Shown: positions 10,353 through 58,415, numbered from the stretch's first letter. The stretch is DNA of 64,000 bases from a virus (IMGVR_UViG_3300018080_000113:64097-128096), one strand, 5' to 3'. Numbers and translations: made by a program. The notes: generated by a model not told the origin, from the letters alone.

Positions 10353-10403
10353 ATTGTCACCTAAGACAGAATTGTATAGAAATATTATATATTTGTACAG
10401 TGC

Positions 10404-11150
10404 TTATTGATGTAGCATTACGCCTTCTCTACCAAGCATAGACCTAGAACTCATCTGTCCTCTATTCATGGCCTGCAAAGACTGTTGTCTCATGGTAGAT
10501 GCTTTGCGTGTTTGAAATGCAGACATATCATTTGTCCAGTTAAGATTTCTTTTAGATCTTTCTCTTTCAACCATTCTGTCTGGAATCCTGCTAAGAGCCT
10601 GGAATCCTTCGTCAGAACTAATGGCGCCCATAAGCCCACCAGCTATAGCTCCTATTGCAGTTCCTACACCAGGAAGAATCGCAGAGCCAATACTCATTCC
10701 TACTCGCGAACCAATTTCCCAACCAACCTGTCCAACTAAACCGCCAGTTGCTGCTCTAGCCTTCTCTTGTCCACTACCTGGCGTTAGTACGGCTGGCAGT
10801 CCAATAAGTGCAGCGCCGACACCAACTCTTGCAGCAGAGCGTAAAGCACTTACCTTTCCTGGGCCTTTTGATGCTTTTGCTATAGCATTCCTAATATTAA
10901 GATTGTGTGGATCTACTTTTTGCATTCGTCGAAGATTAGAAAGATGTTCTGGGCTTCCAAAGCCGACCTTTCTCCTCCATGGAGCCTTTATTGCTTCTCT
11001 GGTTGTTGGCGCAAACATACTGCTAGCAAAGCCACCACCGCGAGCCATAGCAGAAGGAAAAGAACTTTTAGCAAACTGATGCAGGTCCCAAGATAACTCT
11101 TGACGAATAGTAGAGTTAATCCCATGTGGATTTTGGGAAAACCATTTCAT
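10404..11150 (-). CDS. Gly/Ala-rich hydrophobic protein (possible internal virion/ejection protein)
   Basis: 248-aa ORF with GxxxG-rich segments; in the structural operon. Confidence 0.5.
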   Translation of the reverse strand: MKWFSQNPHGINSTIRQELSWDLHQFAKSSFPSAMARGGGFASSMFAPTTREAIKAPWRRKVGFGSPEHLSNLRRMQKVDPHNLNIRNAIAKASKGPGKVSALRSAARVGVGAALIGLPAVLTPGSGQEKARAATGGLVGQVGWEIGSRVGMSIGSAILPGVGTAIGAIAGGLMGAISSDEGFQALSRIPDRMVERERSKRNLNWTNDMSAFQTRKASTMRQQSLQAMNRGQMSSRSMLGREGVMLHQ

Positions 11151-22734: not shown

Positions 22735-23115
22735 ATGGATTCTAACAAATTGATAAGTGAAGCAGAAGCAATGTCCAGGGTACTAGATTCACTGGTAGAC
22801 AGATATCTCACACATGCTGTCGTAGAAATGAGGAAAACAATTCACAAGGCAATAGGTTTTAATGACCTAGACCAAGAAGCAAACCAAAACTTAGATGGAG
22901 CAATTTGGTCAACAATTGCCAAAATTTCAGGAGAAGAAACAAAAAAACAAGGGAAAAGATTCATTCAAGAAATGAAGAAAAGGATTCTAGAGAATCCTAC
23001 TAATGTCCCAGATTTTCTGCGTAATTCAATTAATGAACTCAGTGAAACACCAGAGTTCAAAGACAAGAATGACAATACTCCCCCACTAACGACAACCAAG
23101 GTAGAGGAAGCGTAA
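22735..23115 (+). CDS. hypothetical protein
   Basis: 126-aa ORF. Confidence 0.45.
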   Translation: MDSNKLISEAEAMSRVLDSLVDRYLTHAVVEMRKTIHKAIGFNDLDQEANQNLDGAIWSTIAKISGEETKKQGKRFIQEMKKRILENPTNVPDFLRNSINELSETPEFKDKNDNTPPLTTTKVEEA

Positions 23116-23933
23116 TGAAGGTTCTGATTATGCGAGGCATATCAGGCTCAGGCAAGAGCACATATGCTAACAACATTGCCAAACAATCTGACAAAGCAAT
23201 CATTTGTTCTGCTGACAACTTCTGGATTGATGATGTAGGCAATTACAACTTTGACCGAAACAGACTCAGTGAAGCTCATGCATGGTGCTACGCTCACTTT
23301 GTAGGAACACTAACAACTAACTATCATGACATTGTAATTGTGGACAATACAAACACTCAACTATCTGAAATAGCTCCATACATTGCACATGCCAACTATC
23401 ACAATGCAGACATTGAAATTGTTAGGTGTGTATGCCCGCATGAAGAAGCAGCTAAACGTAACGTTCATGGCGTACCTGCAAAGACTGTTGAGTCAATGCA
23501 GAAACGTATGCAATCTCTACCAAGACATTGGCCGAAAGAAACAATTGTAGAAACAGACTTGCCATTTCTGCAAAGACTAACAAACGAGTGCGAGGTAATA
23601 CAACCACTGAAACTAACAAACAAATGTGACCAATGTGACCATTGGGATTGTTGTAGTGACTGTACAGAACTAACAGGAGAAGAAATAGTTCCAGCAGGAT
23701 TCGACAGTAAACTCTGTTGGGATATCCACAAAGAACTAGATAGACTCGAAACAGGTCTAAGTGCTCAATACAAAATTACAAAAGGAAAAATAGAAATAAG
23801 TAATTGCTGGAGTAGATTTGGACCATACGACGCAGTATTGTTACTTGAATGTTTAGAGTCAATTAAAGGTGACAAAACCGACGAAGACATCATAAGAACA
23901 ATCAAAATGAATTTTGGAGGAAGCCCATTCTAA
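23115..23933 (+). CDS. P-loop kinase (polynucleotide-kinase / AAA_33-like N-domain) with Cys-rich C-terminal domain
   Basis: GISGSGKST Walker A in the first 15 residues, followed by a downstream Asp (CSADNF). Confidence 0.55.
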   Translation: MKVLIMRGISGSGKSTYANNIAKQSDKAIICSADNFWIDDVGNYNFDRNRLSEAHAWCYAHFVGTLTTNYHDIVIVDNTNTQLSEIAPYIAHANYHNADIEIVRCVCPHEEAAKRNVHGVPAKTVESMQKRMQSLPRHWPKETIVETDLPFLQRLTNECEVIQPLKLTNKCDQCDHWDCCSDCTELTGEEIVPAGFDSKLCWDIHKELDRLETGLSAQYKITKGKIEISNCWSRFGPYDAVLLLECLESIKGDKTDEDIIRTIKMNFGGSPF

Positions 23934-32966: not shown

Positions 32967-33339
32967 GGGTCTGACACGGTTTAGACTTTATTGTGACGGG
33001 TGACAATGCATGTCTCGGGGTGGGTATCACCGAGTTAAAAAGATAACCAAAACAGTAATTGGCGAAGATTACTACCCAATGCAGGCTGCTGCTTAAGCAC
33101 CTGCCGTCAACGCTAGCAAGTGTTACATAACTAGTTGAGGCGTCATTTTATGTAATTGCTCTCAAGGAGTTACCGGATGTACTTGAGAAAAGACTAAATA
33201 TCCTGTCCCTAGAATATGATTGTTTTGTTTGTTTTATCAATTATATGAGAGGGTGGCTCGGTAAAGAAAACATTCTAAACATGTGAATGATTTGCATTTA
33301 GATCAATGAAGGACCTCGGTTCGACTCCGAGCAGATCCA
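32967..33339 (+). ncRNA. ssrA: tmRNA (SsrA), one-piece; predicted tag GEDYYPMQAAA-stop
   Basis: 5' GGGTCTG pairs with 3' CAGATCC, giving a G3:U70 alanine identity pair. The 3' end is GGAC + T-arm (CTCGG TTCGACT CCGAG) + acceptor + discriminator A. GTGACGGG lies near the 5' end. An A-rich run precedes the tag frame 33061-33096, which ends GCT GCT GCT TAA. Confidence 0.7.
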
Positions 33340-33523
33340 AAATCAATGTTTTGTATTAGTTTCCAGTTTCTCTATAAGAACTGGTGGTGGAGGCGATGGG
33401 AAACCTGAGCCCTTGTCGTGAACTGGGTGCGACATAAAACAATACGGTGCGAAACCAGAGGCGAACGTCTTAATCCTCGACAGTAAAATCAGGCGTGACT
33501 ACTAGGAGAGACTAGTTCTTTAT

Positions 33524-33624
33524 ATCCAAGTAGCTCAATTGTCCCGGAATACGGATTTGGCAGAGCAACAGCAGCCTAAAAATGGCTGTTGTATGGGTTA
33601 CAGGTTCAAGTCCTGTCTTGGATA
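33524..33624 (+). ncRNA. extended tRNA-like RNA (101 nt), unresolved
   Basis: Acceptor ATCCAAG/CTTGGAT. D-arm GCTC...GAGC with a 17-nt D-loop insertion. 9-bp anticodon-like stem. T-arm ACAGG TTCAAGT CCTGT. Confidence 0.35.
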
Positions 33625-34026: not shown

Positions 34027-34401
34027 ATGTGGTGTGAAGTATACTTTAAGGTGATAGTAGCAGGAGGTAGAGACTTTAAGAATTATAACCTTTTAGAAAA
34101 GAAACTTGATGTGTTATTGTCCAACAAGGTGTCAGATCATACTATTGTTATTGTGAGTGGCGGTGCGAATGGTGCCGATAAGCTTGGGGAAAGATATGCC
34201 AAAAAGAGGAACTATAAGGTAGATAAGTTTCCAGCTGATTGGGATAAATATGGAAAACGTGCTGGGTATCTTAGAAATGAAGAAATGGCTAAGCATGGTG
34301 ATGTTCTTGTAGCATTTTGGGATGGCGTGTCTCGTGGAACTGGCCACATGATTAACATTATGAAAAGGCTTAATAAGCCTGTAAAGATTGTAAGATATTG
34401 A
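34027..34401 (+). CDS. DUF2493-like SLOG-family (DprA/LOG-like Rossmann) protein
   Basis: Pattern VIVAGGRDF ... IVSGGANGADKLGERYA ... PADWDKYGKRAGYLRN ... VAFWDG.SRGT. Confidence 0.5.
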   Translation: MWCEVYFKVIVAGGRDFKNYNLLEKKLDVLLSNKVSDHTIVIVSGGANGADKLGERYAKKRNYKVDKFPADWDKYGKRAGYLRNEEMAKHGDVLVAFWDGVSRGTGHMINIMKRLNKPVKIVRY

Positions 34402-34402
34402 T

Positions 34403-35113
34403 ATGACATTTGAAATTGGACAAGAAGTAAAAACAACAGGCATTGGTGGCATATTCCCCAACTATAAGGCTTGGGCAGAAAACTTTGGGCTTAAAAATTA
34501 TCGCCCAAACAAATATCCTAATCAGGCTAATGTAGTTGTGATAGCAACTGGTAAACATTTAAAAGAAGATAAGTACGGAACTATTTATGGCATTACTCAA
34601 AATGGAATCGATTATATTATAGATGGTCGCTTTCTTCGAGCATTGACTGAAGAAGAAATGCTTGTCAGTACAAAAATAACATTACCTTCTCCAAATCCTT
34701 CTTGTCCTTCTACAAAAATTGATTCATCTCTTTGGTTTAAAAAGTCTATCTGTCATGCTATGACATTTGAGTTTCCTAATGGAGATGTTATTAGTGTGCC
34801 TGGTCCAAAAGAGGAAATTAGAGAAGAATATAAAGTTGAGAAACTAGAATACAGAGACCGTACTGATTCTTTTGTTTTGTTTGATTATTTTATGCCGCGC
34901 GCACAGATGATGAAGCTATCTAATGGTGAAACTCTAAGGTTTTTAAATATACAAGCACGACAGATTATTAAAGAATATAGAGTAAGAATTAATTTAGAAA
35001 CTCCTCGTATTCTTTCATATACTGTCTACAGAGTGACTGTCCTTCGACAAGAAAACAATAAAGAAAACTCATATAAAACTAGTTTTCCAGTACTAAAAGA
35101 ATTTCTTGGATAA
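34403..35113 (+). CDS. hypothetical protein
   Basis: 236-aa ORF. Confidence 0.5.
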   Translation: MTFEIGQEVKTTGIGGIFPNYKAWAENFGLKNYRPNKYPNQANVVVIATGKHLKEDKYGTIYGITQNGIDYIIDGRFLRALTEEEMLVSTKITLPSPNPSCPSTKIDSSLWFKKSICHAMTFEFPNGDVISVPGPKEEIREEYKVEKLEYRDRTDSFVLFDYFMPRAQMMKLSNGETLRFLNIQARQIIKEYRVRINLETPRILSYTVYRVTVLRQENNKENSYKTSFPVLKEFLG

Positions 35114-35504
35114 AGGAGAAAAAACAATGATAGGAACATTATTTTTGATCGCACTAGTAATTGTGATAACTATTGCAGTAGCAGTAAGAACAAAGACAAC
35201 AGAATATAGTGGAATTAGAGGAATTTGCGAGATTGCTATTCTACTGGGAGGCATAGTTTTAACAGTTATGATTATCATGATTCCATTAATGAGATGCGAG
35301 AGCGATCAAGACATTGTAGGCTTTAAAGAAATACGCAGAACAATCAACGAAGCAAGACTGAATTCTACTTATGAAATAGAAGGCAAAGGACTTGCTATTC
35401 TTATTGCAGAACAAAATGGAATGCTTGCAAGGGCAAAAGAAGCAAACAGAACATGGGATCTGTGGTGTTCAGATGAAGTTGACAATATTCAACCTTTGAA
35501 ATGA
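35106..35504 (+). CDS. membrane protein
   Basis: 132-aa ORF with two TM helices. Confidence 0.45.
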   Translation: MDKGEKTMIGTLFLIALVIVITIAVAVRTKTTEYSGIRGICEIAILLGGIVLTVMIIMIPLMRCESDQDIVGFKEIRRTINEARLNSTYEIEGKGLAILIAEQNGMLARAKEANRTWDLWCSDEVDNIQPLK

Positions 35505-35631
35505 GGTAGCAGTATGGACAAAGTAATCTGCGAAGAGTGCAAGTACGTATATATTGGAGACTGCTACAAATTCATCAGAAAGATAGAGGAACCGGGGGAG
35601 GTAAGCTGATGGAATTTTTGAGGAGAACAAA

Positions 35632-35958
35632 ATGATTTATGTGTTATTGATAATTTGGTTTGTTTGTATATTTATTATGATTCAAAACTATTTTGTTTCT
35701 ACAATTGAAAGAAAATGGATAGAGTGTATTCTAGATCTTAATTTAGAAATAATTGATAAGTGTTTCGAAAAAGAACTTTATCCACATAGAATATTTGGTT
35801 CAAATTGGTCAAATGACAATCATAAAATGATGCCTAGCTCTAGGCGTATGTTCTTTTTGCCAAACTATTGGTTTAAAACAAGAATAGAAGATACCAAAGA
35901 TTTTCAAGAATTTGAGAGACAGGCCAAAGTTATCCTTGATACAATAGATGAAATATAA
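35632..35958 (+). CDS. hypothetical protein with N-terminal TM helix
   Basis: 108-aa ORF. Confidence 0.45.
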   Translation: MIYVLLIIWFVCIFIMIQNYFVSTIERKWIECILDLNLEIIDKCFEKELYPHRIFGSNWSNDNHKMMPSSRRMFFLPNYWFKTRIEDTKDFQEFERQAKVILDTIDEI

Positions 35959-35983
35959 AACAACCAACAGCAGGAGGGTGTCG

Positions 35984-38011
35984 ATGAAAAGAATTATTGT
36001 GTTTCTAGTTTTAATGACAATGCCAACAATTGTGTTTGCGCAGCAAGATCCTGATGACGATGGAATTGTAACAGAAGTATGTACTCCTGTAGACAACTGT
36101 CCAGAGATTGCTAACGCAGAACAAGAAGATTGGGATTCTGACGGTGTAGGAGATGCTTGTGCAGATGTGGATGATGATGGAATTTTCGACGATGTAGACA
36201 ACTGTCTTGAGACTCCTAACATGACTCAATCAGATTGTGATTTAGATGGTATTGGAGATGAGTGCGATAGCACTCCAGGTTGTGATACTGAAACTGAAGA
36301 TACTGATGTAGATACAGATACAGAAACGCCTGTAGGAGACTGCACAACAGTAGACAGTAATGTCTTTGAGCCTATTACAGATAATGTCAGAGATCATATA
36401 CTCTCAATCATCAATAATCCTGATTTTGATAGAGATCTTAACGCTTTCATGACGACTGGAGATTCTCTTTCAGAAGGTGGCGGGGAATATGCCGGGTTCC
36501 TCGGCAATTGTTCTTTTCCTCATTGGCCAATAACTAATGGAATTCCAGACGAGCTGCAAACGTGGGACAAAGCAAAAGATTTGAGCTGTTTTCCAGATCT
36601 TGTAAATTCTGTGGACTTTTTCAATGAGGGTGTTTTTACAGATGGAGACAACTCATACACTCGTGAGAGTATTGCTGACTATCCGTCAATGACTGCTACA
36701 TGGCCATTGACAGGCGATCCTACATACCTCCAACAAGAGATTGATTATACTAATGCTCAATTTGCATTAGTGACGTTTGGTACCAACAATGCTTCTTTGA
36801 TTGATGTGGGCAACCAAGCTGCTGTGGACGGTGTTGTAGATGACATTATGATATTGTCTGAGGAGCTTATTGCACAGGGTGTTGTTCCCGTATTGATCTC
36901 ATTGCCCCCAAGAGCTGATGGTTATTTTTGGCAGAGTGAAGCTATTTCAGAAACTTTGAGAGAAGCTGCTGCAATCTATGAATTACCTTTTGCAGACTGG
37001 CACATGGCTGCTTTGCCTCTCGATAATTATGGAGCTGGAAGTGATGGCGTACACCCTCTTTCATATACTTATAGCAGGACATGTACATTTGATTCGACTG
37101 CAATGGAAAATGGAATGGTAATGCACAATTATGTAGCATTGCAGGTATTGGACAATGTTTATGAAGCTGTCATTGGTTCTGTGGATGGAGATGCGGATAC
37201 CGATGCAGATGCAGATTCAGATGCGGACAGCGACGTTGATAGTGATACGGATACAGATACGGACACAGACACGGATACGGATACGGATACCGACACAGAC
37301 ACGGACACGGACACGGATAGCGGTTCTGGTGATATTTGTGACCAACCTTGGGAGCCAATGGTAACACTTTCATTTAATGATGGTTGGGGTGGGCATTTTC
37401 ATCTTGCCAGACCTGAAATGAACTCTAGAGGAATGGTTGGAACCTTCTATCCGCCTATTTACAATCTGCTGAAAAACAATTCACCAGCCCTTTTAGTAGA
37501 CGATGATTTGATTACATTGGTAGCTGAGGGGCATGAGATTGGCTCTCATACGTGGTCACACCCATCTGACACTGGAATCAGCGAAGAGGATCTCCATTAC
37601 GAACTGGGAGACTCTAAGAGCTATCTTGAAGATCTGCTGGGGGTGGAGATTGTAAGCTTTAATGCTTCTATGTGGGGAATGTCAGACCTTACAAAGAGCA
37701 TTATTCCAATGTATTATGAGAACAATAGGAATTACAGCACTGCATTGAATTTCCAAAATGGTGATGTTTACGATCTTCATGGAACCATGGTAAGTGCTTC
37801 CAATGAAGTTGAGTTTCTGACTGACAAAGTTGACAATGCGATCAACCAAGAAGGTTGGTTGATTCTGTACTGGCACAATATCACAGCAGGATATACAGGC
37901 TGGACATATGAGATTGATAAGTTTGTTGGCGTTCTCGATCATATTGAAGCCAGTGGTATCAATGTGGTTACCGTCAAAGAGGGCGTTGCTAGAATGAACT
38001 GCCCTGAGTAG
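35984..38011 (+). CDS. secreted multi-domain carbohydrate esterase: signal peptide, thrombospondin type-3-like Ca-binding repeats, SGNH/GDSL hydrolase, (TD)n linker, polysaccharide deacetylase (CE4/NodB)
   Basis: ATG 35984 after AGGAGGGTG (MKRIIVFLVLMTMPTIVFAQQ). Repeats of DNCPxxxNxxQxDxDxDGxGDxCD. GDSLSEGG motif. NodB motifs LSFNDGWGG and GHEIGSHTWSHP. Confidence 0.65.
   Translation: MKRIIVFLVLMTMPTIVFAQQDPDDDGIVTEVCTPVDNCPEIANAEQEDWDSDGVGDACADVDDDGIFDDVDNCLETPNMTQSDCDLDGIGDECDSTPGCDTETEDTDVDTDTETPVGDCTTVDSNVFEPITDNVRDHILSIINNPDFDRDLNAFMTTGDSLSEGGGEYAGFLGNCSFPHWPITNGIPDELQTWDKAKDLSCFPDLVNSVDFFNEGVFTDGDNSYTRESIADYPSMTATWPLTGDPTYLQQEIDYTNAQFALVTFGTNNASLIDVGNQAAVDGVVDDIMILSEELIAQGVVPVLISLPPRADGYFWQSEAISETLREAAAIYELPFADWHMAALPLDNYGAGSDGVHPLSYTYSRTCTFDSTAMENGMVMHNYVALQVLDNVYEAVIGSVDGDADTDADADSDADSDVDSDTDTDTDTDTDTDTDTDTDTDTDTDSGSGDICDQPWEPMVTLSFNDGWGGHFHLARPEMNSRGMVGTFYPPIYNLLKNNSPALLVDDDLITLVAEGHEIGSHTWSHPSDTGISEEDLHYELGDSKSYLEDLLGVEIVSFNASMWGMSDLTKSIIPMYYENNRNYSTALNFQNGDVYDLHGTMVSASNEVEFLTDKVDNAINQEGWLILYWHNITAGYTGWTYEIDKFVGVLDHIEASGINVVTVKEGVARMNCPE
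37189..37322 (+). repeat. Asp-rich hexanucleotide microsatellite (GATACG/GACACA)n encoding (TD/DA/DS)n linker inside the esterase gene
   Basis: About 20 near-perfect 6-nt units seen directly. Confidence 0.8.
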
Positions 38012-38380
38012 TATGCAAAGAATCTGTTAGGAGCTAGGCTTAGAAGCAGCCATGCTTTAAAGAGTTTCAGTTAAGCTAAGGCCTGTTACCCGATACTGTT
38101 GCTACAGTGGGTCTCTCATAAATATGCAGGATAAGAGCTGAAGAGTTATAACTTGTCTCAGTATGGGTGAGGAGAGCAACTACCATATGTTAAGCAGAGA
38201 ATCTGCGGAGTAAATAACTCGATTGAATTTGGCGTGACAGCACACTATCAGATCGGTCCTGAGTATGACCTAATAACTGCTCTGTTTTCCTAGGTGAGGG
38301 ACGCTGAGAACAGAGCTGAGCCTGCGGGCGATGACGCGAATTCGGACGCGAAAGACCCAAGCTGGATGTACCAGACAGGC

Positions 38381-38552
38381 GGGTGGAATGCCCGTTATTT
38401 ATCCAGGTGGCGGAATGGTAGACGCTAAATGGTTAGGACATCCAAATTCATGAGCAACCAATAAATAGGCCGAGTCATGAAGGAGGACCGTCGCAGGGCC
38501 TTGATTAATTACCAAGGTGTCGCTCGAAATGGTCCGTGCAGGTTCGAGTCCT
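38381..38552 (+). ncRNA. 172-nt tRNA-like RNA with class II-type D-arm and an internal Y-RNA-like module (GGCCGAGTCATGAAGG)
   Basis: Acceptor ATCCAGG/CCTGGAT. D-arm GCGGAATGGTAGACGC. T-arm GCAGG TTCGAGT CCTGC. About 80 nt inserted between the D-arm and a CCTTG-ATTAATTAC-CAAGG hairpin. Confidence 0.45.
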
Positions 38553-38748
38553 GCCCTGGATATTATTCTCTAAGATAAGGATTAGATTATGAATATGTTA
38601 TTTTTGGTGCCTACAATTGTAATGGTTATTCTAAAGCTTGCTAGTCTGGTTACGTGGTCGTGGCCTTTTTGTTTATTTCCAGCTATGATTTATATTGTAA
38701 TTATTGCTCTTGTAGTAATATTTGATGGTTCAAACATAGGATAAAGAA

Positions 38749-39213
38749 ATGTACAATCCAGACGAAGATGGAATAACTCATATCAATGCTTACTCAAAAG
38801 GCAAAACACAAACAGGTAGATTTTTAAGCAATTTTGCTCATTTTGAGTTTGAATGTAAAGATGGTAAGTTTGCTTCCATTGAAGGGTATTGGTATTGGCT
38901 TGGTGCTGACCATCCTGACAAAGATAAACTGCGTATAGTATCTGGATATACGGCTAAAAAGATTGGAAGAGAATTAAAAAGTAAAGATTGGCCAACAGAC
39001 CCAGATTTTAAAGAGAAAATTCTTAAGGCTTGTTGGCAAAAGGTAAAACAGAATTTTATTGTTAGTCATCGGCTTAGAGAATCTACTCTTCCTATTGTTC
39101 ATTATTATAGTTATGGTTCGCCACCAAAGGTTGTTGTTCCTAAAGAAGGAAAATGGATTTGGGACTGGTATGAGAAAGCTCGTGAATATCTAAAGAAACA
39201 TCCTGAGGTATAG
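38749..39213 (+). CDS. hypothetical protein
   Basis: 154-aa ORF. Confidence 0.5.
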   Translation: MYNPDEDGITHINAYSKGKTQTGRFLSNFAHFEFECKDGKFASIEGYWYWLGADHPDKDKLRIVSGYTAKKIGRELKSKDWPTDPDFKEKILKACWQKVKQNFIVSHRLRESTLPIVHYYSYGSPPKVVVPKEGKWIWDWYEKAREYLKKHPEV

Positions 39214-39215
39214 CA

Positions 39216-39518
39216 ATGGCACATCATTATCTTGAAGAAGGAGAAGCTATGGGAGCAAACATGCATTTAGAAGGAGTCAAAACTTTTGGCGATAAAGAAA
39301 AAGCAATGAAACGTATTTATGATACATGCAAGGAATATGGCATAGATATGCCGGACGAAGTACGCTGTTTCTTTAAAGATGAAGATGGATTTACTACTCC
39401 ATTAGAACAACATGGCTGTTGTACAAAACTTAATGAAGAATACAGAGATGGTTTTGAAGTTGATGTTGCTAAAATACCACTAAGTATTAAAACTATTCGA
39501 TTCTTTATTTCCTATTAA
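39216..39518 (+). CDS. hypothetical protein
   Basis: 100-aa ORF. Confidence 0.45.
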   Translation: MAHHYLEEGEAMGANMHLEGVKTFGDKEKAMKRIYDTCKEYGIDMPDEVRCFFKDEDGFTTPLEQHGCCTKLNEEYRDGFEVDVAKIPLSIKTIRFFISY

Positions 39519-39536
39519 AACTGAAAGCGAGAAGAA

Positions 39537-39806
39537 ATGAGAAATACACCAGACGATTGGGATCAATACTATTATCTTTGTCCTGACTGTGGAAAGAAAT
39601 ATCATGCTTCAGGAGAAACAGTGTGTGATTGTGTTCTTTGTGATGTTTGTGGACAATGGTTTCCTCCATTAGATATGGCCAATGAAGAATGTTGTAAATC
39701 TTGTCAAGAAGAATATGATCAAGCAAACACTACGAAAAAACAATATGTCGTTATTGGGGGAATCCTTTTCGAGGGTATACAGGAACTACAACCTTTACTA
39801 GTTTGA
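39537..39806 (+). CDS. zinc-finger protein
   Basis: CPDCGKK ... CDCVLCDVCG. Confidence 0.45.
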   Translation: MRNTPDDWDQYYYLCPDCGKKYHASGETVCDCVLCDVCGQWFPPLDMANEECCKSCQEEYDQANTTKKQYVVIGGILFEGIQELQPLLV

Positions 39807-39947
39807 AAATTGTAGGCCATTTTGACAATGAAGTAGACTTAAAGCTCTGCATAGAAGAGAAATGGGATGAACATGGAGGGCTTCTCCAGATCTTTGAGAT
39901 TGTAGGTGGCAAACTGGTAGAAAGTATTATTTAAAGGAGTAAATAAA

Positions 39948-40268
39948 ATGGACTATCTGTGTATTAGCTTGATTCATTTCTTATTCTATCTTATCTTTAT
40001 TATTCTTTTCTGTATGTATGAGCTAATTAGATATAGTTATTATTTTATTACTGATCAAGAAAGACCAGAATCAATTGTATGTAAAATTGGCAAATATGTT
40101 GATAACAATCTTTTAGACTTATACGGTTCTTATACAAGTGCCGTGGTACTATTTGTAATTATACTTTTAGTTTCTTCATTAGTAATCTGGCCTGTAGTAG
40201 ATCTATTTGTTATTTGGATATCAACTGTAGCTAGTCTTAGGTATTGGTATAAAAATAGAGACGTATAA
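39948..40268 (+). CDS. membrane protein
   Basis: 106-aa ORF with two TM helices. Confidence 0.45.
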   Translation: MDYLCISLIHFLFYLIFIILFCMYELIRYSYYFITDQERPESIVCKIGKYVDNNLLDLYGSYTSAVVLFVIILLVSSLVIWPVVDLFVIWISTVASLRYWYKNRDV

Positions 40269-40306
40269 ATTTAACAGTTTGGCGCGAGCAAATTTAAGGA
40301 GAAAAT

Positions 40307-40798
40307 ATGTCTGAAATTAAGTATCTTATTGGAGATGCAACAGAGCCTGTAGGATCTGGACCTCGTATGATTTTACATGTTTGTAATGATATTGGAGGAT
40401 GGGGAAGAGGATTTGTTTTAGCGCTTAGTAATAAGTGGGAAGGCCCAGAAAGAGAATATCGTATTTGGGCAACGGGCCAAAATCCAGAATATCCTAAGTT
40501 TCAACTTGGAGAAATTCAAGCAGTAGAAGTAAAACAAGATCTTTTTGTTGTTAACATGATTGGCCAACATGGAGTAACTTGGGTTGGAGATATTCCTCCT
40601 GTAAGATATGACAGAATTCGTCAGTGTCTTAATAAAGTTGTTAAGATGGCGAAATATATATCAGAAGATACCGTTATTCATATGCCTCGCATTGGATCAG
40701 GCTTGGCAGGCGGAACATGGCAAGTGATTGAAGGCCTAATCAAAGAAACACTCATTGGGGCAGGGATTGATGTTTTTGTTTATGATTTGCCGGAATAA
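40307..40798 (+). CDS. macro-domain protein (ADP-ribose binding / processing)
   Basis: LIGDATEP ... VCNDIGGWGRGF ... IGSGLAGG matches the macro-fold signature. Confidence 0.65.
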   Translation: MSEIKYLIGDATEPVGSGPRMILHVCNDIGGWGRGFVLALSNKWEGPEREYRIWATGQNPEYPKFQLGEIQAVEVKQDLFVVNMIGQHGVTWVGDIPPVRYDRIRQCLNKVVKMAKYISEDTVIHMPRIGSGLAGGTWQVIEGLIKETLIGAGIDVFVYDLPE

Positions 40799-41517: not shown

Positions 41518-42384
41518 ATGTTTGATAGTCTTGGCGACCGCATGAAGAAATATGAGAAGACTGAAACAGGCAGAAAATTTATGCCTTTGCTTCCTGTAGT
41601 AGCAAGAATAGACGGAAAGGCTTTTCATACTTGGACCAAAGGACTTGATAGACCATTTGATGCTGACATGATTCAAATCATGCAGAATACTACCAAAAAA
41701 CTTGTTGAAGAAACTAGTGCTAAGGTTGGTTATACACAAAGTGACGAGATCTCTCTTGTGTTCTATTCAGATGATATTGAAAGTCAAATATTCTTTGATG
41801 GCAAAATCTTTAAGATGACTAGTGTACTTGCTAGTATGACTACTGCTATTTTCAACGAAAAAATTCTTAGTTTAGCAGGTAATTTGTACAATGATTCTAC
41901 TTGTTACGAAACAGAGACAACAAGAAGACTTAATAAAATAGTTACAAAACCAATGGCATTATTTGATTGTAGAGTGTGGCAAATGCCTACAAAGGAAGAA
42001 GTTTGTAACTATCTAGTTTGGCGCGAGCAAGACGCAGTAAGAAATAGTATTCAATCTGTAGGCCAAGCCAATTTTTCTCAGAAACAATTGCATGGTAAAA
42101 GCCAAAAAGAAATTCAAGAAATGTTGTTTCAAGAAAAAGACATCAACTGGAATGACTGCTTAATAGCTGAGAAGAGAGGAACTTACTTTCAGAAGCGTCA
42201 AGTAGAAAGGATGTTCTCTGTGAATGAACTTACAAAGCTTCCTGAGAAACATGAGGCTAAAAAGAATCCTTATCTTAAAGTTCTTCGAAATGACATTGTT
42301 ACTTTAAACATGCCTAGACTTGCTTCTATTGATAATAGGATAGAGGTTGTTTTTGATGGAGCTGAGCCAGTTATAAAAAGGTAA
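41518..42384 (+). CDS. Thg1-like tRNA-His guanylyltransferase / 3'-5' polymerase (TLP)
   Basis: N-terminal RIDGKAFHTWTK and metal-binding YTQSDEISLVF are the Thg1 hallmark blocks. Confidence 0.65.
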   Translation: MFDSLGDRMKKYEKTETGRKFMPLLPVVARIDGKAFHTWTKGLDRPFDADMIQIMQNTTKKLVEETSAKVGYTQSDEISLVFYSDDIESQIFFDGKIFKMTSVLASMTTAIFNEKILSLAGNLYNDSTCYETETTRRLNKIVTKPMALFDCRVWQMPTKEEVCNYLVWREQDAVRNSIQSVGQANFSQKQLHGKSQKEIQEMLFQEKDINWNDCLIAEKRGTYFQKRQVERMFSVNELTKLPEKHEAKKNPYLKVLRNDIVTLNMPRLASIDNRIEVVFDGAEPVIKR

Positions 42385-43265: not shown

Positions 43266-43493
43266 ATGGGATATTGGCAAAAAGAACCTGATCTTCTATT
43301 TAGAAAAGGCATGGATATGTTTGGCAAGTTTGACTGGGAAAACTATACATACATGGGCAAAGATAAAGAAGATGCTGTTGTGACAGCATTCCTAGATGAC
43401 AATAATCTAGTAGAAATGACAATAACTTCTGCATGTGTTGGATTCTCATATACTTTTCAGAAAAGACCAAGAGTAAAAACCAATGATAATTAA
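43266..43493 (+). CDS. hypothetical protein
   Basis: 75-aa ORF. Confidence 0.45.
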   Translation: MGYWQKEPDLLFRKGMDMFGKFDWENYTYMGKDKEDAVVTAFLDDNNLVEMTITSACVGFSYTFQKRPRVKTNDN

Positions 43494-44679
43494 ATCAATC
43501 TTAGATACAGATTTATATAAACTTACGATGGGCCAAGCTATTGCCCAAAAGTTTCCTCATGCCAAAGCTCAATATAAATTCATTAATCGTGGCGGAACCA
43601 AATTTCTCCGTAGCACTGCAAGAGAGCTTAAGCAAGAAATTCAAAATATGGCAAGTCTTAAGCTTAGTGCAAATGAAAAGGACTGGCTTAGAGCAAACTG
43701 TTCATACTTCAATCCTGTTTATCTAGATTTCTTGGCAGGGTATAAATATGACCCTTCTGAAGTAGATGTTAGATTCTATAGTACATCATCAGAAGACGAT
43801 GGGTCTGATATGGCATTAGGAGATATTGATATTACAATTACAGGGCCTTGGTATCGCACTGTTTATTGGGAAGTTCCATTGATGGCAATTGTCTCTGAGC
43901 TATACAACAGGAACAGTAAACAACCTAGTTATTGTGACATTGAAACTGTTGTAGAGAAAAGCAAAACATTGACTAGCAACGAATGTTTCTTTGCTGACTT
44001 TGGTACGAGAAGAAGATTTAGCCAACAACACCATGACAAAGTAGTAAAAACTTTAGACAAACAGATGGGTACATTTGTCGGTACAAGCAATGTTCATTTG
44101 GCAATGCAATATCAAGTTAAACCAATTGGGACTCAGGCACATGAATGGTTTATGTTCCATGGTGCAAAATATGGTTATCGCGAAGCTAATAGAATAGCAC
44201 TTAAGAACTGGGTTGACGTTTATCATGGTAGTCTTGGTATTGCATTAACAGATACTTTTGGTACTGATGATTTCTTTAAGAGCTTTGGCTCAAAATATTC
44301 AAAACTATTTGATGGCATTCGTCACGATAGTGGCGACTGGAATACATTTGCAAAAACTACTATTGCACATTATTTGAAAAAAAACATTAACCCTAATACT
44401 AAAACGATTGTATTTTCAGATGGTCTTAATGTAAAAAAAGTTCTTGAAATAAATAAAGCTTATGACAGAAGAATCAAATGTTCTTATGGTATTGGCACAA
44501 ACCTTACTAACGATATTAAAGATGGAGCAAAACCACTTAATATGGTTATCAAAATGACAAGCTGTAAGCCTTATGAAGAACATAATTGGTTGCCGGTTGT
44601 TAAGTTGTCTGACGACAAGGGCAAACATACAGGCGCTTCTGAAGAGATTGAATTGTGTAAAAAAACATTGAGGCTATAA
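43483..44679 (+). CDS. pncB: nicotinate phosphoribosyltransferase
   Basis: Blocks match E. coli PncB: ILDTDLYKLTM, GPWYRTVYWEVPLMAIVSE, DFGTRRRFS, GTSN, IGTQAHEWF, GIALTD, RHDSGD, FSDGLN, YGIGT, KLSDDKGK. Confidence 0.85.
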   Translation: MIIKSILDTDLYKLTMGQAIAQKFPHAKAQYKFINRGGTKFLRSTARELKQEIQNMASLKLSANEKDWLRANCSYFNPVYLDFLAGYKYDPSEVDVRFYSTSSEDDGSDMALGDIDITITGPWYRTVYWEVPLMAIVSELYNRNSKQPSYCDIETVVEKSKTLTSNECFFADFGTRRRFSQQHHDKVVKTLDKQMGTFVGTSNVHLAMQYQVKPIGTQAHEWFMFHGAKYGYREANRIALKNWVDVYHGSLGIALTDTFGTDDFFKSFGSKYSKLFDGIRHDSGDWNTFAKTTIAHYLKKNINPNTKTIVFSDGLNVKKVLEINKAYDRRIKCSYGIGTNLTNDIKDGAKPLNMVIKMTSCKPYEEHNWLPVVKLSDDKGKHTGASEEIELCKKTLRL

Positions 44680-44946
44680 ATGAAATCTACTGATATTTTA
44701 ATGAAGTCACCAGGTTATATAGTAACTGGATTTACACGAAACACAAACGCAAGAGGATATAAAGAATTAGAAATAGACGATATTATTCAATTCTCTATTA
44801 GAGTAAGAACAAATTCACGTTATTCTTCAGATGTAATTATATCTTGTCTTAACAAAGGTATTAGTTGGGCAAACAATCAGGGTTTATTTGCATTAAATAT
44901 TGGAATATTGGAACTTAAGGAGATTGATGATGGAATATTGCTATAA
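44680..44946 (+). CDS. hypothetical protein
   Basis: 88-aa ORF between pncB and nadE. Confidence 0.4.
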   Translation: MKSTDILMKSPGYIVTGFTRNTNARGYKELEIDDIIQFSIRVRTNSRYSSDVIISCLNKGISWANNQGLFALNIGILELKEIDDGILL

Positions 44947-45715
44947 GATTGCAGAATGGATTAAAGATTATTTTCAAGAAACAGGGAAAACAAAAGCTAT
45001 TGTTGGTATTTCAGGTGGAATTGATTCAGCAGTTGTGGCTTCTCTTTGTGTAAAAGCTTTAGGCAAAGAAAATGTTCTTGGTGTAATTATTCCTATTGAA
45101 TCATCAATTTATGATGGCTTAGATGCTATGAAAGTAATAGAAAAGCTTGGTATTGATCATATTGAAGTTCATGGTGATTCTCCATTTTATAAAACGTGGC
45201 AAAAGATTATTGATTCTACAATCGGTCTTGCTAGAGAAAATAAACTTATAAAGAATCACAAACTAGTCAAAGGAAATGTTAAAGCACGCATAAGAATGAC
45301 AACTCTATATGCTATTTCTGAAATGACTAACGGGTTGGTTGTTGGCACTACAAACAAGACAGAAGCTCTTATTGGATATGCCACCAAATATGGTGACGGC
45401 GGTGTTGATATTGAACCAATCATGGATTATTACAAAACAGAAGTTTTTGAAATGGCACGTTATCTTGATGTTCCTGTGAGTATTATCAATAAGAAACCAT
45501 CGGCAGGACTGTGGGACGGACAAACTGATGAAGATGAGCTTGGAATGTCATATGCAGAAATTGATATGGCCCTTAAGCTTATCAAAGGCGAACCTTTCTA
45601 TGGCGTACAAAAAACACAGTCTTGGTCTTTGTTTAAAGAAACAGTTGCTAAAGTTGAGAAACTTATCCAAACAACAGAACATAAAAGAAATCTTCCTCCG
45701 TATTATAAGAGGTAA
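44927..45715 (+). CDS. nadE: NH3-dependent NAD+ synthetase
   Basis: PP-loop SGGIDSAV, TTNKTEALIGYATKYGDGGVDIEPI and AGLWDGQTDEDELG. Track start 44900 is TTG; first ATG is 44927 after AAGGAG. Confidence 0.85.
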   Translation: MMEYCYKIAEWIKDYFQETGKTKAIVGISGGIDSAVVASLCVKALGKENVLGVIIPIESSIYDGLDAMKVIEKLGIDHIEVHGDSPFYKTWQKIIDSTIGLARENKLIKNHKLVKGNVKARIRMTTLYAISEMTNGLVVGTTNKTEALIGYATKYGDGGVDIEPIMDYYKTEVFEMARYLDVPVSIINKKPSAGLWDGQTDEDELGMSYAEIDMALKLIKGEPFYGVQKTQSWSLFKETVAKVEKLIQTTEHKRNLPPYYKR

Positions 45716-45730
45716 CAATAAGGATTCAAA

Positions 45731-46270
45731 ATGAAAACTCTAATCGTAGTAGACGCACAAAAAGATTTTATGCCTGGTGGAAACTTAGCAGTCCCAAATG
45801 GTGATGAAATTGTTCCATATATTAATAACATTAAAAAGAACTATGATTTAGTTATTTGGACAAAAGATTGGCATCCACAGAATCATTGTTCTTTCTTGGC
45901 ACAAGGTGGTATTTGGCCTGAACATTGTGTTCAAATGAGTCAAAATGCTGCATTGCATGGCAATCTAGAAGTTCTTGGTGAAGACTATGTTGTTACTAAA
46001 GGATGCAATCAAAAGTTTGATAGCTATAGTGCATTCTTTGACGATGGCGGAACCGATACGGGCTTAGAATCTTTACTCGTTAGCAGAGGAATAACAGAGA
46101 TTGACATCTGTGGCTTGGCACTTGAATATTGCGTAAAATTTACTGTATTAGATGCGTTGAAACTTGGACACAAGGTAAATCTACTTACGTCTGGTTGTCG
46201 TGGAATTGACAACAATGATGTTGCTTCTGCTTTAACAGAAATGAAAACTAAAGGTGCAAACATTATCTAG
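45731..46270 (+). CDS. pncA: nicotinamidase (isochorismatase family)
   Basis: LIVVDAQKDF (catalytic Asp), DWHPQNHCSF (metal site), VVTKG (Lys), DICGLALEYCV (Cys). Confidence 0.8.
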   Translation: MKTLIVVDAQKDFMPGGNLAVPNGDEIVPYINNIKKNYDLVIWTKDWHPQNHCSFLAQGGIWPEHCVQMSQNAALHGNLEVLGEDYVVTKGCNQKFDSYSAFFDDGGTDTGLESLLVSRGITEIDICGLALEYCVKFTVLDALKLGHKVNLLTSGCRGIDNNDVASALTEMKTKGANII

Positions 46271-46279
46271 GAGTACAAA

Positions 46280-46822
46280 ATGACAATAATAGGTTTGCTG
46301 GGCGGTACGTTTGATCCTCCTCATCTTGGTCATCTTGCAGTAGCAAGAATAGCATTGTGGACTGGCGATATTGATGCAGTATGGATGCTTCCTTGTTGGG
46401 AACATGCTTTTGGCAAAAAACCAAAAGACTTTCATCATAGAGCAAGTATGTGTCAACAGATGGTAGAAGAAGAGAAAGATGTTCTTGTTTGTACCGATGA
46501 GGCAGAAATTAAATCAAAATGCGCAATGGACATTCTGACCTATATTATAAAGAAAAATCCTGACAAAGAATTTAGATTGATTCTTGGTACTGATAATTAC
46601 TGGAAAATGGATCAATGGGAAGATAGGCCTGGAGTTTATAAACTAGCAAGGCCTCTTTGGGTCGAACGCTCTGGCGAGTCTAGAATTCCTGAAAGGGTTT
46701 GTTTTCTTAGTAATGACATTAGTTCTACAAAGGCAAGACAAGCTCTTACTGATGGAGAGCCAGTAAATGAAATGCTGCACGATAAAGTAATTAAATATAT
46801 TGTGCAAAATAAGGTTTATTAA
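46280..46822 (+). CDS. nadD: nicotinate/nicotinamide mononucleotide adenylyltransferase
   Basis: GGTFDPPHLGHL nucleotidyltransferase motif and C-terminal ISSTKAR. Confidence 0.8.
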   Translation: MTIIGLLGGTFDPPHLGHLAVARIALWTGDIDAVWMLPCWEHAFGKKPKDFHHRASMCQQMVEEEKDVLVCTDEAEIKSKCAMDILTYIIKKNPDKEFRLILGTDNYWKMDQWEDRPGVYKLARPLWVERSGESRIPERVCFLSNDISSTKARQALTDGEPVNEMLHDKVIKYIVQNKVY

Positions 46823-57525: not shown

Positions 57526-57708
57526 ATGGCAAGAGATAATTGTATAGCTAGTTTCATATTGAGATATGGAAGTATTGATGGCGCTCATCATAAGCAATGG
57601 GTTTTGGATCAAGTCTTAAAGGTTTTGCTTGAAGACAAATACGAAGAAACGATTAAAGAATATGAATCTGATGGAGAATACGAGTGGAACAAAGGAATTG
57701 CACCATAA
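57526..57708 (+). CDS. hypothetical protein
   Basis: 60-aa ORF. Confidence 0.35.
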   Translation: MARDNCIASFILRYGSIDGAHHKQWVLDQVLKVLLEDKYEETIKEYESDGEYEWNKGIAP

Positions 57709-57719
57709 AGGAGAATAGC

Positions 57720-58415
57720 ATGAGAGAAAACGAAGACCTAAAAGAAACTGAAGCTAAAACGGAAGAAGAAAAACCTAAAAGTGCAGTCGAAGCTCTAAAA
57801 GAAGCTTTCGATGACTATGTAGTTGAGTCTAGTCATCTTGTTTCGTACCCTTCAGCAATGCTTAGAACAAAATGTAAAGAAGTAAATATTGAGAAAGATG
57901 ATTCTGATTATTCTTATCATGAAGTTATTGATGATATGACAAAATTTCTTTTTGATTTTAATGCTCTTGGTCTTGCTGCTAACCAAGTTGGACATGATAT
58001 GCGTATTGTTGGTATTTGGGCCGACCAAAAGAAACTTCCTCTCTTTATGATTAATCCTAAAATCACAGACAAGGGCGGAACAATGATTGGTCCAGAGGCT
58101 TGTTTGAGTTTTCCTGGTGTTTTAGTTGATGTTAAGCGTTCAGCATCAATTACAGTAGAATATTACGATACTGACGGCGAGAAACATACTGAAGATTACT
58201 TCGGCAAAGAAGCAATCGTTATTCAACATGAAATTGATCATCTTGAAGGTATTACTCTTGTCCAAAGTGCCTCTAGGGTTTATCGAAGTAAAATCATGAA
58301 AGACCTAAAAGCTGGTAAGCGAAAGATGGTTAAATACGCAAAACTTCAAAAGAAAACAAGAAAACTTGAAGAATTTCTCAAAGAAGCTGACCGGCCAGCA
58401 GCAGAGGCTACATAG
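57720..58415 (+). CDS. def: peptide deformylase
   Basis: GLAANQVG, EACLSFPG and QHEIDHLEG are the three PDF motifs. ATG 57720 after AAGGAG. Confidence 0.75.
   Translation: MRENEDLKETEAKTEEEKPKSAVEALKEAFDDYVVESSHLVSYPSAMLRTKCKEVNIEKDDSDYSYHEVIDDMTKFLFDFNALGLAANQVGHDMRIVGIWADQKKLPLFMINPKITDKGGTMIGPEACLSFPGVLVDVKRSASITVEYYDTDGEKHTEDYFGKEAIVIQHEIDHLEGITLVQSASRVYRSKIMKDLKAGKRKMVKYAKLQKKTRKLEEFLKEADRPAAEAT

Follow-up and report, generated by a model that had tools for sequence, protein, structure and literature searches.

Nicotinamide adenine dinucleotide (NAD+) is central to the conflict between bacteria and phages. Host defences either deplete it or spend it on ADP-ribosylation of the DNA and RNA of phages, and phage proteins that act in this conflict have been described. 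T4 gp30.3 (AdfN) takes guanine-linked ADP-ribose off DNA and defeats DarTG1 (PMC11825919), and the macrodomain protein AdfM of phage PhiKZ provides a phage precedent for a macrodomain that counters DarTG2 (PMC13309987). Phage routes of NAD+ reconstitution have been defined as NARP1 (Adps and Namat), NARP2 (NAMPT and NMNAT) and NARP3 (PnuC and NadR) (10.1101/2024.02.11.579819; PMC13464706), and NARP1 can defeat the RES-type defence aRES with the help of Adpp, a proven phosphatase of ADP-ribose (ADPR)-1''-phosphate (ADPR-1''P) whose gene occurs in 15% of NARP1 operons (10.64898/2026.01.28.702374). Iyer et al. had already proposed in 2022 that Macro, NADAR and SLOG proteins of phages act on soluble ADPR derivatives and cluster with genes for NAD+ synthesis and RNA repair (PMC9503650). 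Here we describe a related locus in 64,000 nucleotides of viral DNA (IMGVR_UViG_3300018080_000113:64097-128096), the whole of which is referred to as the window. In its interval 34027-40798 lie three separate genes of the toolkit with which large phages handle NAD+ and ADP-ribose; each encodes a single domain (a SLOG-fold protein, a NADAR-fold protein or a macrodomain), and a four-gene NAD+ salvage cassette lies downstream.

We propose, at a probability of roughly 45%, that the macrodomain and NADAR proteins erase ADP-ribose adducts made by host NAD+-consuming defences while the cassette rebuilds NAD+, the SLOG protein serving as an accessory of the NADAR branch. Domain identities, conserved residues and gene contexts were observed directly and are presented in turn.

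The macrodomain gene (40307-40798, + strand) encodes a single-domain protein of 163 residues and of the ALC1/TARG1 class. When compared with PDB sequences by phmmer, the protein matched BT1257 (2afc/2fg1; E 7e-51), SCO6735 (5e3b; E 7.6e-43) and the ALC1 macrodomain (E 4e-10), and its first 51 residues matched yeast Poa1p (E 2.8e-6). Identity by BLASTP was 54% to BT1257 and 49% to SCO6735 over the whole length, and 27-28% to Adpp of Vibrio phage Gary. By these matches the macrodomain that an earlier note on this DNA had placed here, ending at 40798, is real, although the Pfam Macro models miss it: none gave a significant match even at E values up to 10, and the sole match was to ThsA_Macro (E 0.28). 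On a family profile built from 32 sequences, the window protein among them, the macrodomain scored 258 bits, and SCO6735 and BT1257, neither of which is in the profile, scored 225 and 242 bits. Its score on an Adpp profile was 55 bits (E 5e-18), as compared with 181-233 bits for Adpp members, and similarity to PhiKZ AdfM was barely detectable (7.8 bits). By sequence comparison, the protein is a member of the SCO6735/BT1257 subfamily and is homologous to Adpp as a sister family rather than as a member.

The residues needed for catalysis in this subfamily were conserved. SCO6735 is without the catalytic lysine of TARG1 and DarG and uses Gln85 instead, the Q85A substitution abolishing activity on DNA and on protein; it cleaves thymine-linked ADP-ribose on single-stranded DNA (ssDNA) and protects cells from DarT toxicity (PMC9411070). 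In SCO6735, K34 and K89 help to position DNA and the groove is electropositive. Uracil-linked ADP-ribose on RNA (PMC13036486) and Glu/Asp-linked ADP-ribose on protein (PMC5087735) are also cleaved by this enzyme. H24, V25, N27, R34, Q87 and the G-x-G loop of the window protein align with SCO6735 H24, V25, N27, K34, Q85 and G126/G128; Q87 sits at the position of the lysine of TARG1 (K84) and DarG (K80), the phosphate loop reads IGSGLAGG, and the K89 position is occupied by T91. Equivalents of SCO6735 H24, N27, Q85, G126 and G128 were kept in 87 to 89 of 89 family sequences. Loss of catalytic and binding residues, which the earlier note had set beforehand as a check on the macrodomain, was not seen, H24, N27, Q87 and the G-x-G loop all being retained. 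The window protein is acidic, with an isoelectric point (pI) of 5.4 as compared with 9.5 for SCO6735; AdfM, for which erasure of ADP-ribose from DNA is proven, has a low pI as well (5.1). The macrodomain matches phrog_335, which carries the annotation 'phosphatase'. Among defence-system models, the protein matched DarG only (PADLOC E 6.6e-6; NCBIfam antitoxin_DarG, 19 bits against a cut-off of 250). Identification as DarG itself was rejected: Gln stands in place of the catalytic Lys80, there is no C-terminal DarT-binding domain, and the score falls far below the cut-off. No darT or other ADP-ribosyltransferase (ART) gene was detected by Pfam among the open reading frames (ORFs) neighbouring the macrodomain.

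A second candidate eraser, absent from the earlier note, was found at 38749-39213 (+ strand; 154 residues). The AlphaFold (AF2) model of this protein, predicted from a 30-sequence alignment, had a mean predicted local distance difference test score (pLDDT) of 95.7, and its sole confident Foldseek matches in the PDB were E. coli YbiA (2b3w), the Phytophthora NADAR with bound ADP-ribose (8bau) and the DarT1-associated, DarG1-type NADAR of Geobacter (8bat). The best match of the family profile among PDB sequences was likewise 8bau (E 1.4e-3). Against Pfam PF08010 (Phage_30_3) the protein scored 16.7 bits, under the cut-off of 36, and the ORF did not match PF08719 (NADAR); it matched two PHROGs of unknown function, one of them phrog_11222, and several of its homologues are labelled 'YbiA (DUF1768)' by JGI. 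NCBIfam models gave no match for the NADAR protein, the SLOG protein or the small neighbouring ORFs. Residues S27-N28-F29, E45, K70, R74 and H118 were invariant across 30 homologues. Phage NADARs of the gp30.3 type are told apart by a His, rather than Glu or Asp, in the last strand (PMC11125620), and H118 lies in the strand where this characteristic His is carried; we infer a correspondence of E45/H118 to T4 E36. As judged from its modelled fold, the ORF encodes an AdfN-type NADAR too divergent for the curated models. The context of its nearest homologue on a long contig (P0005) contained no NAD+ salvage or macrodomain genes.

The NAD+ cassette (43483-46822) was identified by Pfam matches and lies entirely on the + strand. 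It encodes the phosphoribosyltransferase NaPRT/PncB (43483-44679; NAPRTase_N and NAPRTase), the NAD synthetase NadE (44900-45715; NAD_synthase), the isochorismatase-family nicotinamidase PncA (45731-46270; Isochorismatase) and a NadD-like adenylyltransferase (46280-46822; CTP_transf_like), and constitutes a Preiss-Handler-type route from nicotinamide. When compared with NARP1, NARP2 and NARP3, the cassette fitted none of them, its phosphoribosyltransferase carrying NAPRTase_N and not NAMPT_N. Neither a PRPS-like Adps nor Namat was seen near the macrodomain gene, which does not lie inside a NARP1 operon. PncB homologues are rare, occurring in 14 of 50,697 phage records. The earlier note had described the macrodomain and SLOG genes as co-located with NAD+ salvage genes; the four downstream genes were confirmed, but the co-location is loose. 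The macrodomain gene ends 2,685 bp (about 7 ORFs) before pncB and the SLOG gene ends 9.1 kb (about 17 ORFs) before it, many of these ORFs being unrelated. Every gene in the 34027-40798 interval is on the + strand, and most of this 6.8-kb interval is taken up by unrelated genes, including genes for membrane proteins and for the 687-residue protein described below.

Gene neighbourhoods were then surveyed over 10 kb on each side of 86 viral macrodomain loci (75 clusters at 80% identity), 8 PncB-anchored loci, 68 SLOG-anchored loci and 80 NADAR-anchored loci. A phosphoribosyltransferase of NAD+ salvage (NAMPT or PncB) was present at 18 of 86 macrodomain loci as compared with 2 of 80 NADAR loci (Fisher p = 2e-4); counted by cluster, the figure was 14 of 75 (p = 1e-3). 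At 13 macrodomain loci, representing 10 clusters with GC contents of 33-64%, NadM-Nudix and/or NAMPT genes lay alongside the macrodomain gene, and in 9 loci NAMPT ended less than 800 bp upstream of it, in the order NadM-Nudix, NAMPT, macrodomain. The NadM-Nudix (NUDIX plus adenylyltransferase) and NAMPT (NAMPT_N plus NAPRTase) assignments were confirmed by Pfam. Tight, co-directional operons of this composition were found on several IMG/VR contigs (L031, 7239-10501; L024, 6766-10507; L039/L041; L042/L049; L060), and in L031 the macrodomain ORF (9986-10501) begins 4 nucleotides past the end of the NAMPT ORF. Because a salvage phosphoribosyltransferase accompanies the macrodomain gene at these frequencies, often within an operon, the link between SCO6735-type macrodomains and NAD+ salvage is recurrent.

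Two 198-kb relatives (L001/L088 and L009), whose macrodomains are 57-60% identical to that of the window, have the order RNA ligase, macrodomain, Thg1, RtcB, then PncB, NadE, (PncA), NadD and, further on, Ro60. Beyond this lineage, PncB occurred within 10 kb of the macrodomain gene in three clusters (L013, L016/17 and L068). Six PncB-anchored loci outside the close relatives, five of them distinct since L091 and L092 are near-identical, lacked a macrodomain gene of this family, and the macrodomain-PncB link is thus not universal from the PncB side. The earlier note had also suggested that the macrodomain would complement NAD+ resynthesis, a suggestion that draws support from the Adpp precedent (10.64898/2026.01.28.702374) and from the salvage link seen in 14 of 75 clusters. 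The macrodomain homologue of cultured Streptomyces phages overlaps a Sir2 gene: in phage Annadreamy (NC_048719; L244, 5321-6465), a Sir2-family gene ends exactly where the macrodomain homologue starts; this homologue, annotated as a hypothetical protein, sits among RNA ligase, polynucleotide kinase and tRNA genes.

The SLOG gene (34027-34401, + strand) encodes a stand-alone YAcAr/YspA (DUF2493) protein of 124 residues. It matched Pfam PF10686 (YAcAr, 'YspA, cpYpsA-related SLOG', formerly DUF2493) with an E value of 1.3e-18 (66.9 bits, cut-off 28.2) and phrog_289 with an E value of 9e-36, and the SLOG/DUF2493 gene that the earlier note had placed at 34027 is real, its ORF ending where that note had it end. 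The AF2 model of the protein (pLDDT 95) adopts a predicted SLOG fold, for which the top Foldseek matches were ShosA (8zva), DprA (4ljl/3uqz), the LOG-like protein TM1055 and the ThsA SLOG domain with 3' cyclic ADPR (3'cADPR) (7uxs; E 1e-3, probability 1.0), the last ranking below ShosA, DprA and LOG. The fold is Rossmannoid with Gly-rich nucleotide loops, and G45-x-A47-x-G49-A50-D51 and D99...S102-x-G104(-T105) were invariant motifs. The search returned 1,854 homologues, mostly stand-alone proteins of about 120 residues, and the window protein is an ordinary member of this very large, well-conserved family. An experimental study of phage YAcAr/YspA/DUF2493 proteins was not found in the literature.

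SLOG neighbourhoods were weakly conserved across the 68 loci. A Nudix gene followed the SLOG gene in 6, a NAPRTase-family gene was nearby in 7, and PncB was near it in none. The recurrent partner of the SLOG protein was instead the NADAR clade of the window: a SLOG gene lay within 10 kb in 10 of 80 NADAR loci, NADAR and YAcAr SLOG were fused in one ORF in 4 of the 80 (L182, L193, L225 and L238, at about 9.3-10.5 kb in each), and phrog_11222 is itself a NADAR-SLOG fusion. In L238 a macrodomain gene lies directly upstream of the fusion. The earlier note had tied the SLOG gene to the NAD+ cassette; with 9 kb between them, PncB in 0 of 68 loci and a partner elsewhere that is NADAR, including fusions, this tie gained no support. 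A probable role for the SLOG protein is that of an accessory to the NADAR branch, not to the cassette, that binds nucleotides, ADPR or ssDNA. The context of one SLOG homologue on a long contig (P0267), two genes away from an NAD+-dependent DNA ligase, contained no NAD+ salvage or macrodomain genes, and on a large phage contig (L250, 10001-13150) a close SLOG homologue was found two genes upstream of an NAD+-dependent DNA ligase (LigA). In the window, the SLOG gene is tightly followed by, and translationally coupled to, an ORF of 236 residues (34403-35113) in which no family was detected with Pfam, PHROG or NCBIfam and which was not a conserved SLOG neighbour in the loci scanned.

On the reading that we favour, host NAD+-consuming defences would put ADP-ribose adducts on phage nucleic acids. 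By analogy with SCO6735, DarG and AdfM, the macrodomain would be a catalytically competent SCO6735-type ADP-ribosylhydrolase acting on thymine in ssDNA and on uracil in RNA, and by analogy with AdfN and DarG1 the NADAR protein would be an ADP-ribosylglycohydrolase acting on guanine. Both reactions would free ADPR and restore replication and translation, the PncA-PncB-NadD-NadE cassette would independently rebuild NAD+ from nicotinamide, and ADP-ribosylation and depletion, the two outcomes of NAD+-based immunity, would both be answered by the combined genes. In this scheme we infer the substrates, the defence systems targeted and the cooperation between the parts. A role of the macrodomain on RNA as well is suggested because the surrounding RNA-repair genes (Thg1, Ro60, RNA ligase, tRNAs and tmRNA) fit it, and the predicted SLOG fold is nearest to those of the ssDNA-binding proteins DprA and ShosA.

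Several observations weigh against this proposal. Phage members of the SCO6735-type subfamily are known from sequence alone, and the window macrodomain is acidic and has T91 where SCO6735 has K89. Family members linked to NAD+ genes are more acidic than the rest (median pI 6.1 versus 7.2, p = 0.01), and a soluble ADPR derivative as substrate accounts for the link to NadM-Nudix/NAMPT operons more naturally than DNA repair does. In the host, no target resembling DarT is known. In addition, the macrodomain, NADAR and SLOG genes are not adjacent in the window, and in the two closest relatives a scan of 10 kb on each side of the macrodomain gene revealed neither a SLOG nor a NADAR gene.

The main rival reading, possible if doubtful, is that the macrodomain is an Adpp-like ADPR-1''P phosphatase, or another hydrolase of soluble ADPR derivatives, working with the NAD+ cassette. 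From NAD+, RES-type defences produce nicotinamide and ADPR-1''P; the macrodomain would convert ADPR-1''P to ADPR, ADPR would pass through AMP and ribose-5-phosphate to phosphoribosyl pyrophosphate (PRPP), and PncA, PncB, NadD and NadE would then rebuild NAD+, an 'associated phosphatase' extension of the PRPP-dependent salvage route. Homology to Adpp extends over the full length and includes the common motifs H-x-x-N, G-x-G, G-Q and IGxGLAGGxW, but a score of 55 bits on the Adpp profile stands against 258 bits on the protein's own profile, on which SCO6735 and BT1257 also score highly. Adpp is a demonstrated ADPR-1''P phosphatase of NARP1 operons, and the N-terminal match to Poa1p and the 'phosphatase' label of phrog_335 point the same way. 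From gene context, the 18 of 86 macrodomain loci with NAMPT or PncB, the close upstream NAMPT in 9 loci, the acidity of NAD-linked members and the Arg that 9 of 10 NAMPT-linked members share with the window protein at the K34 position all favour a soluble substrate. Against the Adpp-like reading, six PncB loci outside the close relatives are without this macrodomain, scanning of the window ORFs revealed no Nudix ADPR pyrophosphatase, no report was found of SCO6735 having been tried on ADPR-1''P, and PRPP-based NARP2 already beats aRES without a macrodomain (10.64898/2026.01.28.702374). Eraser and Adpp-like activities are not mutually exclusive. We also consider, as an unlikely but specific combination of the two, that SCO6735-type macrodomains are a second, independently recruited set of 'associated hydrolases' of PRPP-dependent phage NAD+ reconstitution that have kept a de-ADP-ribosylase activity on DNA and RNA. 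If this were so, they would release free ADPR from an adduct made by a host defence (ADPR-1''P or another), closing a recycling loop or removing a toxic product; their coupling would be with the NadM-Nudix/NAMPT operons of many uncultured phages and with PncA/PncB/NadD/NadE here, not with NARP1; and one macrodomain protein would cover both arms of NAD+-based immunity.

It is improbable that the macrodomain is a housekeeping part of a phage RNA-repair module, tied only indirectly to the NAD+ cassette, either clearing the ADPR-1''P or Appr>p left by NAD+-dependent 2'-phosphotransferase repair or stripping ADP-ribose off damaged tRNA or mRNA. The order RNA ligase, macrodomain, Thg1, RtcB and Ro60 is kept in the relatives, but synteny among related phages may come from descent and not from function. 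The window itself contains Thg1, Ro60, RNA ligase, an AAA_33 kinase, tRNAs and a tmRNA, the Annadreamy homologue also sits among RNA ligase, polynucleotide kinase and tRNA genes, and SCO6735 is active on RNA carrying ADP-ribosylated uracil (PMC13036486). However, Pfam searches of the window ORFs tested revealed no Tpt1/KptA, 2H or cREC enzyme, and RtcB and Rnl-type ligases leave no 2'-phosphate.

The earlier note had emphasized Thoeris signals, proposing that the macrodomain and SLOG proteins handle ADPR or cyclic ADPR species produced by NADase defences. That one or both bind or degrade 2'cADPR, 3'cADPR or related TIR-made signals while NAD+ is rebuilt is very unlikely. Such a role was proposed from gene context by Iyer et al. 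in 2022 (PMC9503650), and ThsA senses 3'cADPR through a SLOG domain to which the window SLOG model has a match (7uxs), but the SLOG protein is more like DprA and ShosA than ThsA. Some Thoeris effectors have a macrodomain sensor, and the window macrodomain has its weak ThsA_Macro match, yet the nearest characterized macrodomain homologues act on base- or protein-linked ADP-ribose (for SCO6735, thymine, uracil and Glu/Asp adducts) and not on cyclic ADPR, and DarG models were the only defence-system models matched. Although SLOG genes adjoin Nudix or NAPRTase-family genes in some phages, the window SLOG gene is 9 kb from the cassette and PncB was found in none of the 68 SLOG loci. A screen of 72 phage lysates found cleavage of 2'/3'cADPR only by the RyR-domain enzyme RyDEP, no degrading enzyme having been known earlier (PMC13232231), and the known anti-Thoeris proteins Tad1-7 are unrelated. 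The Thoeris emphasis therefore gained no specific support, and the earlier interpretation stands in its domain assignments and macrodomain residues and is not supported in its cyclic signals and its SLOG-cassette tie. Least probable of all is that the macrodomain reverses or tunes ADP-ribosylation by a transferase or sirtuin of the phage itself, forming a writer-eraser pair. The Sir2 gene that abuts the Annadreamy homologue, in an arrangement that recalls known sirtuin-macrodomain operons, speaks for this, but scanning of the 64-kb window, itself part of a larger genome, revealed neither an ART nor a Sir2 gene.

The window comes from a large, uncultured tailed phage and carries at least 12 tRNA genes and one tmRNA. 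JGI, ENA and Logan data each contain an independent assembly of its sequence, with the same gene arrangement and on contigs as long as 140 kb, and a megablast search with 12.8 kb of the window against the 50,697 phage records gave no match and no near-identical DNA. A block of accessory genes, all on the + strand, runs from about 16 kb through the end of the window; within it, the stretch that holds the SLOG, NADAR, macrodomain and cassette genes is an RNA-repair and tRNA island, and the block around the macrodomain and NAD+ genes also encodes Thg1, Ro60, RNA ligase, the tRNAs and the tmRNA. The Thg1-like tRNA 3'-5' nucleotidyltransferase gene (41518-42384, + strand; Pfam Thg1, E 1.6e-27) follows the macrodomain gene, as it does in L001/L088 and L009, and Thg1 lies within 10 kb of a macrodomain gene in L013, L015 and L051. 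Thg1-like genes also recur near macrodomain, NADAR, SLOG and NAD+ genes on unrelated contigs (L013, L015, L051, L139, L158, L179-181, L194 and L229), and in L158 genes for NAMPT, NadE, NadM, Thg1 and SLOG lie inside 6 kb. Just 5' of the SLOG gene lies the tmRNA (32967-33342; Rfam, 97 bits), whose tag peptide is predicted to be GEDYYPMQAAA. A Ro60/TROVE protein with a vWA domain is encoded at 48129-49742, downstream of the NAD+ cassette as in the two related phages, and a separate VWA protein at 51254-51919.

An Rfam search of intergenic gaps gave extra tRNA-like matches and nothing else. These lie at 33524-33624, 50245-50370 and 50789-50857 and were not called by ARAGORN; the lengths of the first two (101 and 126 nucleotides) imply an insertion, and the last two are just 3' of the Ro60 gene. 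Intron-containing tRNAs are one possible identity for them, and the tRNA-like module of a Y-RNA-like Ro60 partner is another. Four further loci hold accessory genes for RNA and translation (52168-53478, 54847-56197, 57684-58415 and 23115-23933), encoding an OB-domain RNA ligase of the Rnl type, a pair of neighbouring calcineurin-like phosphoesterases, a peptide deformylase and an AAA_33 kinase, possibly a polynucleotide kinase. Genes for Tpt1, 2H, Sir2, ART and Nudix proteins were not detected among the window ORFs scanned. Between the SLOG and NADAR genes, a 687-residue protein (35948-38011, + strand; Pfam) combines a signal-like N-terminus, thrombospondin type-3 (TSP3) repeats, an SGNH/GDSL hydrolase region and a polysaccharide deacetylase domain, and its ORF contains a long Asp-Thr/Asp-Ser dipeptide repeat at about 37155-37364. 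Only about 41% of the large terminase (7164-10352, - strand; 1,062 residues) aligns to other phage terminases, as two pieces with a gap between them, and this pattern points to a sizeable insertion such as an intein or homing endonuclease. Scanning of 32.7-48.2 kb predicted 54 promoters, as compared with 52 in shuffled sequence, and 9 terminators, as compared with 7; because these counts are no better than those of shuffles, operon boundaries could not be drawn.

Counter-defence of this general type is known, and a description of the combination of macrodomain, NADAR, SLOG and NAD+ genes was not found in the literature. Leads for which no description was found are the SCO6735-type macrodomains in NadM-Nudix/NAMPT operons and near PncB cassettes, and the recurrent fusion of the window NADAR clade to YAcAr SLOG; the phage PncA/PncB/NadD/NadE cassette, outside the published NARP1-3, is a further lead. 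The window phage appears to answer both NAD+ depletion and ADP-ribosylation in one block, with two different erasers, a SLOG partner and a salvage route that is not NARP1-3. The operon of NadM-Nudix, NAMPT and macrodomain genes offers a testable lead for macrodomain-assisted PRPP-dependent NAD+ reconstitution, and the NADAR-SLOG fusions offer a handle on the YAcAr SLOG family. These results also expose an annotation blind spot: Pfam Macro models miss SCO6735-type macrodomains, including that of L031, and the NADAR and Phage_30_3 models miss the NADAR clade, so that surveys that rely on these models will undercount both in phages. The locus extends current thinking and overturns none of it.

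Compared with described systems, the window macrodomain is closest to SCO6735 and BT1257, with which it shares single-domain size and the catalytic set of His24, Asn27, a Gln in place of the TARG1/DarG lysine and a G-x-G phosphate loop. It differs from SCO6735 in being phage-encoded and acidic, with Arg for K34 and Thr for K89, and in lying in an RNA-repair and NAD+ salvage island, whereas SCO6735 is the product of a DNA-damage-induced chromosomal gene. With AdfM (PhiKZ gp104) and DarG it shares the same broad class of macrodomain and an expected chemistry, removal of thymine-linked ADP-ribose, but it matches AdfM at only 7.8 bits, has Gln for the catalytic Lys, and lacks both the DarT-binding C-terminal domain and an adjacent DarT. 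Adpp of the phage NARP1-AP operons (Osterman et al., 2026 preprint) is likewise phage-encoded, homologous over its full length and found near NAD+ reconstitution genes; at 27-28% identity it belongs to another subfamily, and the window macrodomain lies outside an Adps-Namat operon, its partner pathway being PncA/PncB/NadD/NadE. The window NADAR resembles AdfN and other phage NADARs in its fold, conserved Glu, phage-type His and small stand-alone form among early or accessory genes; it differs from phage NADARs in falling below the curated Phage_30_3 cut-off (16.7 versus 36 bits), and from T4 AdfN in that its clade is often fused or adjacent to YAcAr SLOG, an arrangement undescribed for AdfN. 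As in the Macro-NADAR-SLOG-Nudix network of Iyer, Burroughs, Anantharaman and Aravind (2022), the three domain families occur together in a large phage near NAD+ and RNA-repair genes; that network is predictive, favours soluble ADPR signals and describes NadV/NadM/NadR salvage rather than PncA/PncB/NadD/NadE. Experiments after that proposal established AdfN, AdfM and Adpp, and the locus adds new members to such known types of protein.

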